Made by a program: the position numbers and the translations under genes. A stretch of DNA of 64,000 nt from a bacterium. Lineage in GTDB: Bacteria; UBA8248. The notes below the pieces were generated by a model. The model was given only the letters and a program-made list of their open reading frames with translations. It was not told where the DNA came from and did no database searches. This document shows, one piece after another, positions 3,492-64,000 of this stretch. The stretch covers positions 256,001 through 320,000 of the forward strand of contig CBDATS010000005.1 of NCBI GenBank assembly GCA_965200245.1, in the 5' to 3' direction. Position 1 is the first letter of the stretch, and the number at the start of each line of letters is the position of its first letter.

Positions 3492-4889
3492 ATGCGGAAC
3501 ACAAAGAAACTGCGGGCCATCCTGATCGCCGCCTGTCTCCTCCTGCTTCTCGCCGCACCGTATCCAGGGGCCGACGCCAAGGCGGAGAACGCCCTGCGCG
3601 TTCCGTGGAAGGTGACCGAACACAGGATGAAGAACGGAATGCGCGCCCTTCTATTGCCCGACAACAGCGCACCCATGGTAGTCATGAAGATTTGGTACGC
3701 CGTCGGAAGCCGCGACGAGCAGCCCGGTCTCACGGGAATGGCTCATTTTCTGGAACACATGATGTTTCGCGGCACGAAGAAATACGGCCCAAAGGTATTC
3801 AGCGAGATCGTCAAGAAAAACGGTGGTACGCACAACGCGTTCACGAGTTTCGACTACACCGCGTACTATGAGCGTATCGCTTCGGACAGGCTGGAACTCA
3901 TCATCGAACTAGAAGCCGACCGCATGGTGAACATGATTCTCGAAAAAACAGGCTTCGATGCAGAGAAAGACGTGGTGCACGAGGAAAGACGTACCTATGA
4001 CGACCGTCCGTCGCACATGTTCTGGGAACAACTCCGGGCTGTCGCCTACACAAACCACCCCTACAAGAACCCGATTCTCGGTTGGCCCGGGGACGTGGAG
4101 GCCATCACTATCAAGGACATGGAGGCGTTCTACAAGCGCTTCTACAGCCCGGAGAATGCCACGGCCGTTCTGGTGGGCGACTTCAGAGTGGAAGAAGCTA
4201 TCGCGCTTCTCGAAAAGCATTTCGGGAAAATCCCCAAATCCCCGATCTTCAGGAAAAGGTCGAAACTCGTTGAGTTCCCCCAGAAGTCCGAGCGCAGGGT
4301 GTACGTGCGCGCGGCCGCGCAGCTTCCCTACGTGGCGATCGCCTATCACGCCCCCAACTGGAAGAGCGAGGACGCGCCCGCCCTCGTGATGCTGGAGGCC
4401 ATACTCGGCGGCGGAGAGACCTCGCGGGTCCACCAGAGGCTGGTCCGCATGGACACCATCGCCCTGGCCGCGGGTACGGATTACACCTACGTCTCCGCAG
4501 ACCCGATGGCCTTTTATTTATACGCCAGGCTGGCGCCCGGCAAGAAGGCCTCCGATGCCGAGAAGGCCCTGCTCGAGGAGGTGGAAAAACTCATCGAAAA
4601 AGGCGTGACGGACGAGGAATTCCGTCGCGCGCTCAGGAGCATCGAGGCGAACACGGTTTTCGCTATGGACTCGCATTACTACCGCGCGAGTCTCCTCGGC
4701 CGGGCGGCGATTGCGGGCGATTGGCGTCTACTCGAGGGCTACCTGCCCGCCCTCAGGAAAGTGACGCCCGCCGATGTGGTCCGCGTCGCGAAAAAATATC
4801 TGAACCACAACAACAAGACCACCGCCGTGCTCATACCAACCAAGAAAAACCGCCGCGCCAGTGCCGCCAAAAGCCGGGGAGGAAGCTAG
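3492..4889 (+). CDS. M16 family zinc peptidase, catalytic subunit, with signal peptide
   Basis: HFLEH (HxxEH), NAFTSFDYTAY, hydrophobic N-terminus. Confidence 0.92.
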   Translation: MRNTKKLRAILIAACLLLLLAAPYPGADAKAENALRVPWKVTEHRMKNGMRALLLPDNSAPMVVMKIWYAVGSRDEQPGLTGMAHFLEHMMFRGTKKYGPKVFSEIVKKNGGTHNAFTSFDYTAYYERIASDRLELIIELEADRMVNMILEKTGFDAEKDVVHEERRTYDDRPSHMFWEQLRAVAYTNHPYKNPILGWPGDVEAITIKDMEAFYKRFYSPENATAVLVGDFRVEEAIALLEKHFGKIPKSPIFRKRSKLVEFPQKSERRVYVRAAAQLPYVAIAYHAPNWKSEDAPALVMLEAILGGGETSRVHQRLVRMDTIALAAGTDYTYVSADPMAFYLYARLAPGKKASDAEKALLEEVEKLIEKGVTDEEFRRALRSIEANTVFAMDSHYYRASLLGRAAIAGDWRLLEGYLPALRKVTPADVVRVAKKYLNHNNKTTAVLIPTKKNRRASAAKSRGGS

Positions 4890-4890
4890 C

Positions 4891-6222
4891 ATGAAACTCT
4901 ACCGCATTCTTTGGACACTCGCTGCCGTTCTGCTCCTCTCGCCCGCTGTGGCGGACGCAGACATCATGACTTACGAACGCGAGGAATTGCCCGGCGGCGG
5001 CGTATTGCTGGTCAAACAACACAAACAGCTACCCATGGTGCGAGTTGCCGTCTCGATTCCCGCGGGCGCACACCATGAGACGCCCGAACAGGCTGGGCTC
5101 GCGAACCTGACCGCCACCCTCCTCGCCCGGGGCACGAAAACGAGAAACGCCTCCGATATCGAGAAAACGAATGACTCCCTGGGCGGCGGGGTGGGTGCCG
5201 AGACCGACCGCGCGCGCGCGAAGGTCTCAATGCGCGTGCTGACGCGGGACTTGGATGAGGGCCTCTCCCTGCTGGGCGATGTGCTCAGGAACCCTGTCTT
5301 CCCTGCAGAGGAGATAGAAAAAACGAAAAAACGTATCCTGGGTAGCCTCCGAAGGCAGCGCGAGCGACCCAGCCACCTGGCGAACAAGATGCTCCGGAAA
5401 AGTCTTTTCGGCGAAACCCCCTACGGCCGTCAGGTGGAGGGAACGGAGGCATCGATCAAGAATCTACGCAGAGAGGACCTCCTCCACTTCCACAAAAAAT
5501 GGTACGGCATGAAGGGGGCGATCTTCGTCTTCGTGGGCGACGTTTCACGCAAGCGCGCACGGGAACTCGTTCTGGCCCGCTTCAAGAACTGGCGGGCGGA
5601 GGGAGGCAAGCTCCCCGGGATGACACCCCCCGCTGCGCCGAAAAAGATGCAGGTGGTCAAGCTCGACCGTCCGCTTTCCCAAACTACCGTGATTCTGGGT
5701 AGCCGCTCTCTAAAGCGCACGGATCCGGATTTCTACGCCGCGCGCGTAATGAACTACATTCTGGGCGGAGGCGGCTTTTCCAGCAGGATCATGGACAACC
5801 TGAGAGAAGACAAGGGTCTCGTATACAGCGTCTATAGCTATTTCGCCTCGGGTCGTCACGCTGGCCACTGGCGGCTTGTCCTGCAGACGAAGAACAAGAC
5901 CGCGAATGAGGCCATCCACGAGGCTATCGCGGAGGTTAATCGCATCCAAGAAAAAGGCGTGAGTGACAAGGAGCTTCAAGACGCCAAGGACTTCTTGACA
6001 GGTAACTTCGCCACGCGCTTCGGCTCGTCAGGCCGCATTGCGGGCTATATTCTCGCGGTGGAGATTCTGGGTTTCTCACCCGGCTATGCGGATGAGTATC
6101 TCAGGAAAATTCGCGCCGTCACCAGGGAGCAAATCCTCGCTGCAGCGAGAAAACATATCAGGCTCAATGAGTCCACCCTCGCCGTGGTGGGGAATTTGAG
6201 CGAGGCAAAGCTCGCCTATTGA
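4891..6222 (+). CDS. M16 family peptidase, non-catalytic partner subunit
   Basis: Lacks HxxEH; has ILGGGGFSSR..LREDKGLVY (R/Y pair); signal peptide; 1 nt after the partner's stop. Confidence 0.9.
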   Translation: MKLYRILWTLAAVLLLSPAVADADIMTYEREELPGGGVLLVKQHKQLPMVRVAVSIPAGAHHETPEQAGLANLTATLLARGTKTRNASDIEKTNDSLGGGVGAETDRARAKVSMRVLTRDLDEGLSLLGDVLRNPVFPAEEIEKTKKRILGSLRRQRERPSHLANKMLRKSLFGETPYGRQVEGTEASIKNLRREDLLHFHKKWYGMKGAIFVFVGDVSRKRARELVLARFKNWRAEGGKLPGMTPPAAPKKMQVVKLDRPLSQTTVILGSRSLKRTDPDFYAARVMNYILGGGGFSSRIMDNLREDKGLVYSVYSYFASGRHAGHWRLVLQTKNKTANEAIHEAIAEVNRIQEKGVSDKELQDAKDFLTGNFATRFGSSGRIAGYILAVEILGFSPGYADEYLRKIRAVTREQILAAARKHIRLNESTLAVVGNLSEAKLAY

Positions 6223-61570: not shown

Positions 61571-61645
61571 TCCGGCGTAGCTCAACGGCAGAGCAATCGG
61601 CTGTTAACCGATGGGTTGTAGGTTCGAATCCTACCGCCGGAGCCA
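61571..61645 (+). tRNA. tRNA-Asn (GTT)
   Basis: TCCGGCG/CGCCGGA acceptor stem, ATCGG-CTGTTAA-CCGAT anticodon arm, GTTCGAAT T-loop, CCA. Confidence 0.96.
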
Positions 61646-62049
61646 ATTTCTGTGGGTTGTTCCACCCCCACGCCTCACCTGTCCTTGAGGCGAAACCAGA
61701 GCTCGGCTCTTTCACGAGGACATTCACGCTCCAGTCACGCAGAACTGCCATGCGGGCGAGTTGTTCATGAGGTTTCACTCCCGGCTGCATGTTGAACGAG
61801 TCGCTAAAGGGTTTGTACAGATCGATTCCTTCCACTTTGCACCTGTACAGATGACCATTCGCCGGACCCTGAAATACTTTTTCAGTTCTTTTGCGTTGCG
61901 GCTTTGCATGGAATCAGATCCCGCACGCGGAGCATCTTCCGTGCAAGGTTTTGCTTTCTTCGCCGTATTCAACAGGCCCGCAATGATTCTTGTACGTTAA
62001 TGCGGCTCTGATCAAATTTGTTGGTCCTCTTTCGCCCCAGCCGATCCCT

Positions 62050-63150
62050 TCAAGCGCCGTTCCTGGCTTTTTCGAGTGTGGAGACATTCATTGGGTGCGC
62101 ATTGCGACGGCGCTTGTCGACGCGGATATGCAGGCGCGCAGCATCAGCGAGACTCAGACCCGCTTCCCGTAATTCGCTCCGGCTGAAACCCTTGCCAGGG
62201 CGCCATGCACCACGGGTATCCCTTACGAGAGGGAAAAATACATTCTCCGCCAGAGAGGATTCCGGGAGCTCCTCCGGCAACTCTGGCAAAACCGACGCCG
62301 GCAAGGGTTTCTCAACCTCCTCTGTGATATCTTCCGCTTTCTCCGGCTCGCCCTCCCAAGAAATTTCAGGCTCAGATGCAGCAGTCTCTACGCCACTTTC
62401 GGCAATCGCCGAGGCAACTTCCCCGTCTTCGGTCGGCTGTTCGTCCTCCTCCGGCAAATTGTCCGCAACTGACGCCATTGCTGCCTGTTCACTCACGGAA
62501 ACCGTGTCATCGCCTGTTTCCGGATCACCTGCTTCCGGGATTTCCTGTCCGTGTGCGGATACCTCCGCGGTGCTTTCTGACTTGTATGGAACGCTCTCGT
62601 TTACCGGGACCGATTCCGACACCGCCAGAGATTCCTCGATCTGCTGTACAATTTCATCTATGACATCCGGTTCACTCTCTTGAGGAGTTTGCGGGTCGGG
62701 CGCAGCCGCCTCCTCGACGCTTTCAACTGTATCCATGGCAGATTCCGGACATTTTTGTGACGGATCCAGCATTTCCGACGACTCGTTTGATTCCGTCTCC
62801 ACCAACAACTCCAGATCAAGACCATATTCCTCGAAAGGCGCTGCCTCACGAGGAGGCTCGGGCGTAGCACGTGAGCCGTCCATAACTGACGCAGCCAACG
62901 GTTCAAGGGCGGGAGAATCGCCGCTTTCAACGGCGTCCGACCCGTTTGCGGAATCAGTTTGTGGTGGTTCACCGGAAGCGAGCAGTTCCAGATCCAAGTG
63001 AGAACCATAACTTTTGTTCTTCGTATCTTCCGTCGAATGCGGAACGCCCGGTTCGATGTCCGTGGGAGGTGGAATCTGAAATCCCTCTTCTGGCTCGGTT
63101 GGTGCGGGATCCTTGCGACGCGCGATACGACTCAAAAATTTTTTTCTCAT
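62050..63150 (-). CDS. Acidic disordered protein with C-terminal ribosomal protein L13e (eL13)-like domain
   Basis: About 300 aa E/P/S/A-rich, then PLVR..RPGKGFSRSELREAGLS..AARLHIRVDKRRRNAHPMNVSTL. Confidence 0.78.
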   Translation of the reverse strand: MRKKFLSRIARRKDPAPTEPEEGFQIPPPTDIEPGVPHSTEDTKNKSYGSHLDLELLASGEPPQTDSANGSDAVESGDSPALEPLAASVMDGSRATPEPPREAAPFEEYGLDLELLVETESNESSEMLDPSQKCPESAMDTVESVEEAAAPDPQTPQESEPDVIDEIVQQIEESLAVSESVPVNESVPYKSESTAEVSAHGQEIPEAGDPETGDDTVSVSEQAAMASVADNLPEEDEQPTEDGEVASAIAESGVETAASEPEISWEGEPEKAEDITEEVEKPLPASVLPELPEELPESSLAENVFFPLVRDTRGAWRPGKGFSRSELREAGLSLADAARLHIRVDKRRRNAHPMNVSTLEKARNGA

Positions 63151-63366
63151 GCCAATGCCGCCCTCTTTGAGGTCAAAAAATCGTGATATTGAAAGATTAT
63201 CGTTCAGATATTACAGGGGCGGTAAACAGGATTGAAAAACCTACAAACTCAAACTAGCGATTCCAAAGGCTTGGTGTCAAGTTCGCAAGAACACGTGCAA
63301 CAAGTGTATGTTCAAAGACCGGAAATTCGGAAAACCCGGTGAAGCCGGGTGGATATCACCAGTTTC

Positions 63367-64000
63367 TCACCCTGCTTCAACCGCCAACTCCTCGGCAGCC
63401 TGGATGATGAGTTCGATGTCCGCATCCCGCGAGAGCCTATGGCCACCATCCTTGACGAGCGTGAGGTGCACATCGTCGCCTTTCAATACACTGGTGATTT
63501 TCAAGGAAATCTCCCAAGAAATAGCTTCATCAAGCATCCCGTGGATGAGGCGCACCGGGCATGTCAAATCAATCTCACCGTCCAGGAGCAGGTGCTTCGC
63601 ACCCTCATCAAGCAGTTTCTTGCTGATAGGATACGGTTCCTCCCACATGTTGGGCGCGTGCATGACGTATCCCCGCTCGTCGAGTTCACTTTGCATCTGT
63701 TCGGTGAGCCTGTGGTTGATGAAGCGCTCCGTAAAATCGGGCGCCGACGCCACGCCCACCAGAGCTTTCACGCGCGCGGGCCGGGCCAAGGCAGCGAGCA
63801 GCATCATCCACCCGCCCATGCTCGAACCTATGAGTACCTGGGGACCCTGGGCGACATTGTCCAGAATCGCCAGCGCGTCTTCCGCCCACTCGCCGATAGT
63901 TCCGTCTTCAAAATTCCCGGAAGATTCCCCGTGTCCACCGTAATCGAATCGAACGTAGGCACGCCCCACCTTTCGGCAATGGGCCTCGAGCGCGCGCGCC
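63367..64000 (-). CDS. Alpha/beta hydrolase (ABHD10-like), 5'-partial
   Basis: RFDYGGHGES.G, GSSMGGW, APDFT, HG..D, GHRLS. Confidence 0.88.
   Translation of the reverse strand, partial: ARALEAHCRKVGRAYVRFDYGGHGESSGNFEDGTIGEWAEDALAILDNVAQGPQVLIGSSMGGWMMLLAALARPARVKALVGVASAPDFTERFINHRLTEQMQSELDERGYVMHAPNMWEEPYPISKKLLDEGAKHLLLDGEIDLTCPVRLIHGMLDEAISWEISLKITSVLKGDDVHLTLVKDGGHRLSRDADIELIIQAAEELAVEAG

Follow-up and report, generated by a model that had tools for sequence, protein, structure and literature searches.

The sequence analysed here is a 64,000-nucleotide window (forward-strand positions 256,001 to 320,000 of contig CBDATS010000005.1, assembly GCA_965200245.1) from a Nitrospinota bacterium of the UBA8248 lineage that is found in sponge metagenomes. 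Close to its end, on the reverse strand, lies a genus-restricted accessory gene. Its product has three parts: a basic helix, an acidic region of ~290 residues, and a C-terminal domain of ~60 residues related to the core of eL13, a protein of archaeal and eukaryotic ribosomes (Table 1). To our knowledge, textbooks list eL13 as absent from bacteria. The gene occupies a slot between a tRNA-Asn gene and an alpha/beta-hydrolase gene. Together with the hydrolase come genes for an FMN reductase, a luciferase-like monooxygenase, a PEGA protein, and IlvD, and on the other side lies a molybdopterin oxidoreductase with a cytochrome b561. This is an ordinary bacterial neighbourhood with a tRNA nearby, as the original prediction, made from the window alone, had described. 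The G+C content across the gene (0.555-0.575) is the same as that of the flanks.

Table 1. Features of the acidic eL13-module gene and its slot, with the DruE-partner genes discussed in the text. Positions refer to the window unless a locus (L) is named.
Feature	Location	Strand	Basis or remark
Whole gene, acidic eL13-module protein	62050..63150	-	366 codons + stop, ATG start; ORF (open reading frame) listing, translation
eL13-core module, C-terminal, residues 301-366	62053..62250	-	folded part predicted from ~residue 305; HMM (hidden Markov model), PDB sequence, AlphaFold2, Foldseek
Polyacidic intrinsically disordered region, residues 15-300	62251..63108	-	charge, composition, full-length AlphaFold2
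Conserved short motif YGLDLELL, residues 109-116	62803..62826	-	alignment of 54 family members
First, degenerate motif copy YGSHLDLELL, residues 48-57	62980..63009	-	translation, family alignment
Basic N-terminal segment, residues 1-14	63109..63150	-	net charge +6; predicted helix 3-12
Shine-Dalgarno-like AGAGGG, 10 nt 5' of ATG	63161..63166	-	direct reading of sequence
tRNA-Asn(GTT), one slot border	61571..61645	+	ARAGORN
Alpha/beta-hydrolase gene, other slot border, continues beyond window end	63367..64000	-	Pfam Abhydrolase_1, E 3.5e-12
DruE-partner genes	L040:2447-4183, L044:1994-4261, L051:7959-9938, L061:2242-4632	+	directly 5' of DruE

The identity of the C-terminal module was examined with profile models, by comparison with known structures, and by structure prediction. 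Pfam PF01294 (Ribosomal_L13e) scores 31.3 bits against the whole protein (E = 2.3e-7) and 34.6 bits against the module alone, above the gathering cut-off of 24.9; the match covers only model positions 62-98 of 180 and thus falls short of the full domain. The NCBIfam model of archaeal L13e, NF008914, matches with E = 5.4e-14 and 51.6 bits over positions 27-73 of 83, and scores rise to 56 bits (E = 2e-15). The range of 51.6-56 bits lies below the equivalog cut-off of 96, which is set for the whole protein. In a phmmer search of the PDB, the best 60 of the 68 distinct sequences at E ≤ 1 are all named eL13, L13, or L13e, with 6rm3_LL0 (E = 5.8e-7) and 9e6q_AH (E = 1.2e-6) at the top. These results bear out the original prediction of an eL13-like C-terminus: the open reading frame is exactly as it was given, and the motif falls in its last ~62 residues.

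An AlphaFold2 model of the 66-residue module has a mean predicted local distance difference test score (pLDDT) of 88 and a predicted template-modelling score (pTM) of 0.71, and it consists of two short strands and three helices. The input alignment, A2, holds 42 sequences, archaeal L13e-type sequences included, and all 42 match NF008914 at E ≤ 0.001. When the model was compared with the PDB using Foldseek, all 50 matches listed were chains from 60S, pre-60S, or 80S ribosome entries, with query-normalized TM-scores (TMq) of 0.64-0.81 and root-mean-square deviations of 2.2-3.3 Å among those listed; 30 of 184 matches have E ≤ 0.001. Chains of entries 6rm3, 7cpu, 8a98, 9h4n, 8esq, 3jag, and 3jct are eL13 or L13 by name in the phmmer search, and the predicted fold superposes on eL13 of yeast, mammalian, microsporidian, and kinetoplastid ribosomes. 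Ten module residues (R17, G19, G21, F22, S23, E26, D45, R47, R48, and N55) either do not vary at all or reach at least 90% conservation when archaeal-type and bacterial modules are compared, so the conserved eL13 surface is retained. The shared core reads R-x-G-K/R-G-F-S-x-x-E-L ... D-K/R-R-R ... N-V. Four independent kinds of test, two with profile models, one with PDB sequences, and one with the predicted fold, thus establish genuine homology between the module and the conserved, RNA-contacting core of eL13.

The resemblance is far beyond chance. A fortuitous or convergent likeness of a short basic motif, for example one of the G-F-S-x-x-E-L decapeptide type, is extremely improbable. Decapeptide proteins P0023, P0102, and P0141 do match positions 19-41 of the module profile, and the Pfam 'Decapeptide' family gives E = 0.2 with the window protein. 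However, the match to eL13 spans ~50 residues, including D-K-R-R-R-x-x-H-x-x-N-V, and Pfam, NCBIfam, PDB sequences, and the predicted fold concur, as does the archaeal model across the whole of A2. The three decapeptide proteins are DotG/IcmE-like, with 13-15 tandem A-G-F-S-x-x-E-L decapeptides and module-profile E values of 1e-15 to 3e-10; they share only those positions, 19-41, with the module, a low-complexity resemblance that should not enter counts of eL13-like proteins. The identity of the module as a DotG/IcmE decapeptide repeat (PF25296) was rejected, the score being 12 bits against a cut-off of 45 for one copy only. The local A-G-F-S-x-x-E-L is common to both, whereas the window module has this pattern only once and continues into D-K-R-R-R ... 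N-V, which is specific to eL13.

The module ends a chain of opposite charge. Residues 301-366 are strongly basic (net charge +7, isoelectric point (pI) 11.6), whereas residues 15-300 contain 26% aspartate plus glutamate, with a net charge of -67 and a pI of 4.05. A full-length AlphaFold2 model built with 54 relatives predicts a helix at residues 3-12, no secondary structure from 13 to 299, and a folded module at the end; pLDDT is mostly below 50 from residue 13 to ~300, with most of 41-303 below 50 in seven stretches. The long acidic, low-complexity region noted in the original prediction is thus real in composition and is predicted to be disordered. Among the 54 aligned relatives, invariant or nearly invariant positions cluster in the N-terminal helix (R8, R11, R12, and K13 nearly invariant), the P-P-P-x-A-I segment (P27-I32), two short motifs, and the module. 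In the YGLDLELL motif, Y109 is invariant, and G110, E114, and L116 are nearly so; L54, E55, and L56 are nearly invariant in its degenerate copy. The motif class [YFW]G.[DEH][LFM][DE].[LV] occurs in 115 family members with zero copies in 5, one in 41, two in 47, three in 17, and four in 5. Total length in the same 115 ranges from 139 to 798 residues (median 334), and the acidic region differs in length between orthologues. The length range and the variable motif number suggest that the acidic region expands and contracts by repeats. By eye, YGLDLELL does not fit the consensus of a clathrin box, an LC3-interacting region (LIR), or a dileucine motif. The ESM Atlas had no usable match for the whole protein. 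A consensus scan for sigma-70-like promoters found no site at the gene, and a terminator scan found a single terminator-like site, inside the gene on the opposite strand, the count being below the shuffled mean.

A basic, putatively nucleic-acid-binding domain and a long polyacidic disordered region in one chain resemble nucleic-acid-binding proteins that are regulated by their own acidic tails, and also acidic DNA-mimic proteins such as phage Ocr. No homology to any of these came to light, although no search was aimed at it, and the window protein differs in that its tail bears conserved YG-x-D-L-E-x-L motifs and varies in length through repeat gain or loss.

The distribution of the gene was determined across its genus. 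The genome that contains the window, G000, is a 3.68-Mb assembly of 15 contigs (95.8% complete, 8.1% contamination) with a single PF01294 match, on an 849-kb contig. The full gene has 113 homologues at E ≤ 0.001, and the titled relatives are metagenome-assembled genomes (MAGs) of Nitrospinota or Nitrospinaceae. A 66-residue module query has matches in 18 of the 22 other genomes of the genus. In 17 of these the match is of the acidic type (E ≤ 1.2e-28), supplying the orthologues in related MAGs that the original prediction had proposed to look for. The match in G007 (E = 1.5e-9) belongs to a different protein type, the partner, described below, of DruE, a helicase of the bacterial anti-phage system Druantia. 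The acidic type was not found in five congeners: G001, G009, G015, and G019 gave no module match, and G007 has the DruE-partner type only. Several genomes of the genus carry two or three copies, and none of 18 genomes outside the genus has a match to the module. In 98 of the 99 relatives listed, the acidic tail occurs with the module; the sole exception looks frameshifted. Library member P0192 shows an apparent frameshift where its module begins, and genome G010 has two shortened copies (L015:2215-2559 and L016:1910-2356) whose frames of 115 and 149 residues retain just the module and the last part of the acidic tail.

The contig is not chimeric at this locus, a possibility that the original prediction had left to be checked. 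Among 20 related loci (L019-L038), the hydrolase, the module, and tRNA-Asn stand in the window's order in 12, the module and the tRNA share short contigs in 2, and 6 are extra copies elsewhere. The tRNA-Asn gene lies beside the module gene in 14 of the 20 and is identical at 74-75 of its 75 bases. In addition, an 11,392-nucleotide DNA contig from a run of another study spans positions 61590-64000 without a difference. Both the conserved order and this bridging contig argue for continuity. Leaving aside the possible source sample, sequencing runs from two studies contain the stretch, and one of these carries the label sponge metagenome (X4, six of seven pieces at least 99% alike). As a hint of expression, RNA-library contigs from two metatranscriptome runs of one study match portions of the gene body at 100% identity; in run X7, all three pieces fall within 62262-63112. 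Uncovered parts of the locus in the RNA runs, and the small-share run X8, do not count as evidence here. The module is under purifying selection. Median ratios of nonsynonymous to synonymous substitution (dN/dS, Nei-Gojobori, against eight orthologues) are lowest in the module (0.12) and higher in the N-terminus (0.33) and the acidic region (0.38), values to be read with partly saturated dS and an uncertain alignment of the acidic region.

The interval between tRNA-Asn and the hydrolase (window 61571-63367; L051, L052, and L053) is a variable hotspot in the genus. It holds ~190 bp in G019, ~3 kb with a HicB-family ORF in G001, a two-gene DruE system in G007, and, in most genomes, the acidic gene. 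Some extra copies of this gene have integrase, transposase, or antitoxin genes beside them: two tyrosine integrases in L036 (474-2821), DDE_3 and IS110 transposases in L027 (1650-2336 and 6619-7752), and in L026 an AbiEi antitoxin gene (4560-5387) that is broken into two ORFs. The variable slot and these copies speak for an accessory or conflict-related role more than for one in core translation. In some genomes, 1-1.7 kb of additional ORFs lie between the acidic gene and tRNA-Asn (L024:5024-5701 and L022:1038-2271, both on the reverse strand); neither has a PADLOC match, and L024, the one also compared with Pfam, has no match there either.

The protein is not an isolated case. A module-profile search of a library of 1.84 billion proteins returned 866 representatives at E ≤ 0.001, so the module occurs in hundreds of bacterial proteins. 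The retrieved subset of the 866 comprises at least 164 proteins of DruE-partner type, 115 of acidic type, 61 short proteins of 55-170 residues (archaeal-L13e-sized, and unlabelled except for L039 and L041-L043), and 4 others, all lower bounds. Module-bearing records are titled Binatia, Alphaproteobacteria, Verrucomicrobia, Gammaproteobacteria, and Nitrospinota. The DruE partners are proteins of ~550-980 residues (P0251-P0363) with a body of ~500 residues that belongs to no Pfam family; the 164 carry the module at the extreme C-terminus. The body was first seen in G007, one Binatia MAG, and one Alphaproteobacteria MAG; its occurrence in Verrucomicrobia and Gammaproteobacteria is taken from library names. 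Wherever the sequence 3' of the partner is available (10 of 10 loci), the next gene is DruE: this holds for the Binatia and Alphaproteobacteria loci (PADLOC DruE1, 1e-138 and 4e-131), G007, G009, and six of six metagenome loci; a seventh metagenome locus runs off its contig. The eL13-like C-terminus is present in all six metagenome loci that reach the partner's end, and of the 113 newly listed proteins related to the partner body, 100 have it.

The remaining partners include cases in which the same junction leads into a different protein. In P0284 the C-terminus is a full-length bacterial uS17 (104.9 bits with Pfam; 106.1 with NCBIfam TIGR03635, whose cut-off is 88.7), and in the G009 partner it is RNA-polymerase omega (PF01192 32.9 against 26; NF001579 E = 1e-12, below its cut-off of 58). 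At the sequence level, the C-terminus of the DruE partner is modular, its eL13-like end being exchanged for bacterial uS17 or RNA-polymerase omega. The eL13, uS17, and omega proteins are small subunits that bind ribosomal RNA (rRNA) or RNA polymerase. A likeness of the P0275-type tail to uL29, seen by eye, had no tool support and was dropped. In the alphaproteobacterial partner, an insert of ~20 residues splits the eL13-like module (L044:4001-4240), which Pfam then misses; the insert resembles a repeat of a segment of the protein's own body ('...SAFDDSEKG.LFVG...'). The module also ends up in other company: P0151 joins it to a PLD-like nuclease (775 residues), P0103 to NusB (297 residues), and P0065, P0080, P0041, and P0112 to a helix-hairpin-helix tail (129-159 residues). 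These other fusion partners are nucleic-acid-related.

The window protein and the DruE partner thus share a C-terminal module, and the G007 partner occupies the same tRNA-Asn/hydrolase slot. However, the window protein has no ~500-residue partner body and no DruE alongside or elsewhere in G000, and because DruE is missing, the acidic protein is not a component of Druantia. The partner itself matches no PADLOC model, that of DruH of type III Druantia included. Two 2026 Druantia preprints describe E. coli DruH as larger and of different architecture, a protein with immunoglobulin-like domains that binds single-stranded DNA and possibly acts as a scaffold for host proteins.

One way to read a conserved eL13 core in bacteria is that the acidic protein does housekeeping work on the ribosome, as an associated factor or as an additional ribosomal protein peculiar to this lineage, with the module seated on the 50S subunit as eL13 is and the tail projecting to recruit or repel factors. 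The retained core residues, the strong purifying selection on the module, the syntenic position in 12 genomes, the RNA-library contigs over parts of the gene, and the ribosome or RNA-polymerase subunits found as alternative DruE-partner tails would all fit such a role. We nevertheless regard it as doubtful. Only part of PF01294 is matched and the archaeal equivalog cut-off is not reached, the gene was not found in 5 of 22 congeners, it sits in a variable tRNA-adjacent slot and in no ribosomal-protein operon, lengths are highly variable, and the extra or truncated copies adjoin mobile-element genes. A ribosomal protein would be expected in universal single copy within its lineage, whereas this gene is absent from some congeners and present two or three times in others. 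On coverage, equivalog score, universality, and context, the acidic protein is therefore not a ribosomal protein as such: it carries only the core of eL13, C-terminal in an acidic bacterial chain of 366 residues, and is encoded by an accessory gene.

The origin of the module was addressed with a tree of 68 columns, inferred by a quick method from a random subsample of 127 of the 344 eligible rows. It held 14 acidic proteins out of 115, 47 of the partner type out of 164, 60 short ones out of 61, and all 4 others, together with the window and L039. With 5 of 124 branches starred, a donor cannot be named. The acidic family forms one clade (Shimodaira-Hasegawa-like approximate likelihood-ratio test (SH-aLRT) 90) that groups, with weak support (75), nearer to the short proteins of archaeal type. 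In an approximately unbiased (AU) test with groups defined after inspection of the tree, acidic and DruE-partner modules as one bacterial clade against the short proteins were not rejected (p-AU 0.67), and the constrained tree uniting them was 19 log-likelihood units better than the quick free tree. Taken together, the weak tree and the AU result make a deep archaeal or eukaryotic ancestry of the module plausible, and they do not establish direct transfer into the genus. The inter-domain acquisition put forward in the original prediction is borne out for the homology to eL13 but not for a direct acquisition by this genus itself.

A single bacterial clade would also permit the acidic gene to be what is left, without function and in decay, of a DruE-partner gene that once lay in the tRNA-Asn hotspot. 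The G007 slot does hold DruE together with a partner that has this module at its C-terminus, and truncated and frameshifted copies occur. This explanation is disfavoured and very improbable: dN/dS remains low (0.12 in the module, 0.33-0.38 elsewhere), the alignment of 54 members shows conservation of the N-terminus and the motifs, the G007 module is only ~50% identical and has the opposite orientation relative to the tRNA, and there is no similarity to the partner body.

The sponge-metagenome label raises another alternative, namely that the protein is an 'eukaryotic-like' effector that a sponge symbiont delivers to host cells and whose module or acidic motifs engage host ribosomes or other host machinery. 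Parts of the literature report such proteins as abundant in sponge symbionts, the family is confined to one genus (0 of 18 genomes outside it), and short linear motifs recur within the disordered region. A host-directed role is still improbable. The translated N-terminus, read directly and not with a predictor, is basic and has no hydrophobic stretch resembling a signal peptide, and there are no secretion genes among the neighbours. The archaeal model (E = 5e-14) fits better than the Pfam model (E = 2e-7), and the module is inseparable from the DruE-partner modules, which include records with no sponge tie seen.

Our tentatively preferred explanation, held at somewhat less than even confidence, is that the module is a portable docking domain for RNA or the expression machinery that carries an acidic effector tail and acts in mobile-element conflict. 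In bacteria, the eL13 core would serve as a portable docking module for nucleic acid or gene-expression machinery; its main bacterial setting is the C-terminal end of the DruE-helicase partner, where uS17 or RNA-polymerase omega can take its place. Within the acidic protein, the module would most likely anchor the chain to a structured RNA, rRNA or the ribosome being the favoured target. The acidic tail would then be the working part: it may compete electrostatically for basic nucleic-acid-binding proteins or act as their bait, or it may cover the basic module of its own chain. The genomic setting suggests a role in phage or mobile-element conflict. Homology, fold, architecture, distribution, selection, and genomic setting form the demonstrated part of this picture, whereas RNA or ribosome binding, the role of the tail, and the defence link are inferences, as are the ribosome-binding module and RNA-mimicking tail of the original prediction. 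A reading that gives DruE the central place is unlikely: the eL13-like, uS17, and omega ends would be docking or bait domains that link the DruE system to the ribosome or RNA polymerase, or subunit mimics shown to phage factors, and the acidic protein would be a free-standing relative with the same docking surface, binding the bacterial translation apparatus by means of a domain that is otherwise known from archaeal and eukaryotic ribosomes only, and modulating immunity or translation via its tail.

Several observations weigh against the docking-domain explanation. We know of no eL13 site in bacteria. The RNA-library contigs are no proof of transcription. The immediate neighbours are metabolic and not defence genes, and no PADLOC model matches the window protein (0 families) or the DruE partners in L040 and L044, all searched at E ≤ 0.01, or the partner in L014, searched at E ≤ 0.001. 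The exchange of tails is solid for two types, uS17 (one cluster with one member, a library protein only) and omega (one genome). Four other partner tail types have no significant PDB or NCBIfam match, and the weak S6 hints among them (Pfam E = 0.0066; NCBIfam E = 0.04) are not counted as ribosomal. Among 15 congeners searched, DruE occurs only in G007 and G009, both of which lack the acidic gene; because these two genomes are related, the mutual exclusivity is a hint only. G000 has no DruE, its only match being a generic helicase of 35% identity 240 kb away, so the Druantia link runs only through the shared module and the shared slot. Finally, the module was not found in a phage collection or a plasmid collection, and a fold search of BFVD gave no match at E ≤ 0.001, so there is no direct link to a mobile element.

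The domain hit as such is already on record, since the NCBI pipeline names acidic relatives 'ribosomal protein L13e' (P0164, P0183, P0014, and P0005, from Nitrospinae/Nitrospinota and one MAG labelled Rhodospirillaceae). That annotation overstates a core-only match; it is misleading and is spreading in Nitrospinota MAG records. No publication was found on bacterial eL13-like proteins or on ribosomal or RNA-polymerase-subunit tails in DruE partners, in a search that did not extend to the Druantia supplements, which possibly list DruE-associated variants. Two recent DNA-centred Druantia preprints contain neither 'ribosom' nor 'L13', and the passages on L13e and horizontal gene transfer in PMC3353972 concern archaea.

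These results describe the eL13 core as a widespread, mobile bacterial domain in two architectures for which no description in print was found. The acidic protein offers a compact, testable case of what a bare eL13 core binds outside the archaeal or eukaryotic ribosome. The exchange of eL13 core, uS17, and omega at the tail of the DruE partner is probably the more important and more surprising part. It suggests that a branch of Druantia-like immunity may be tied, physically or logically, to the transcription-translation machinery.

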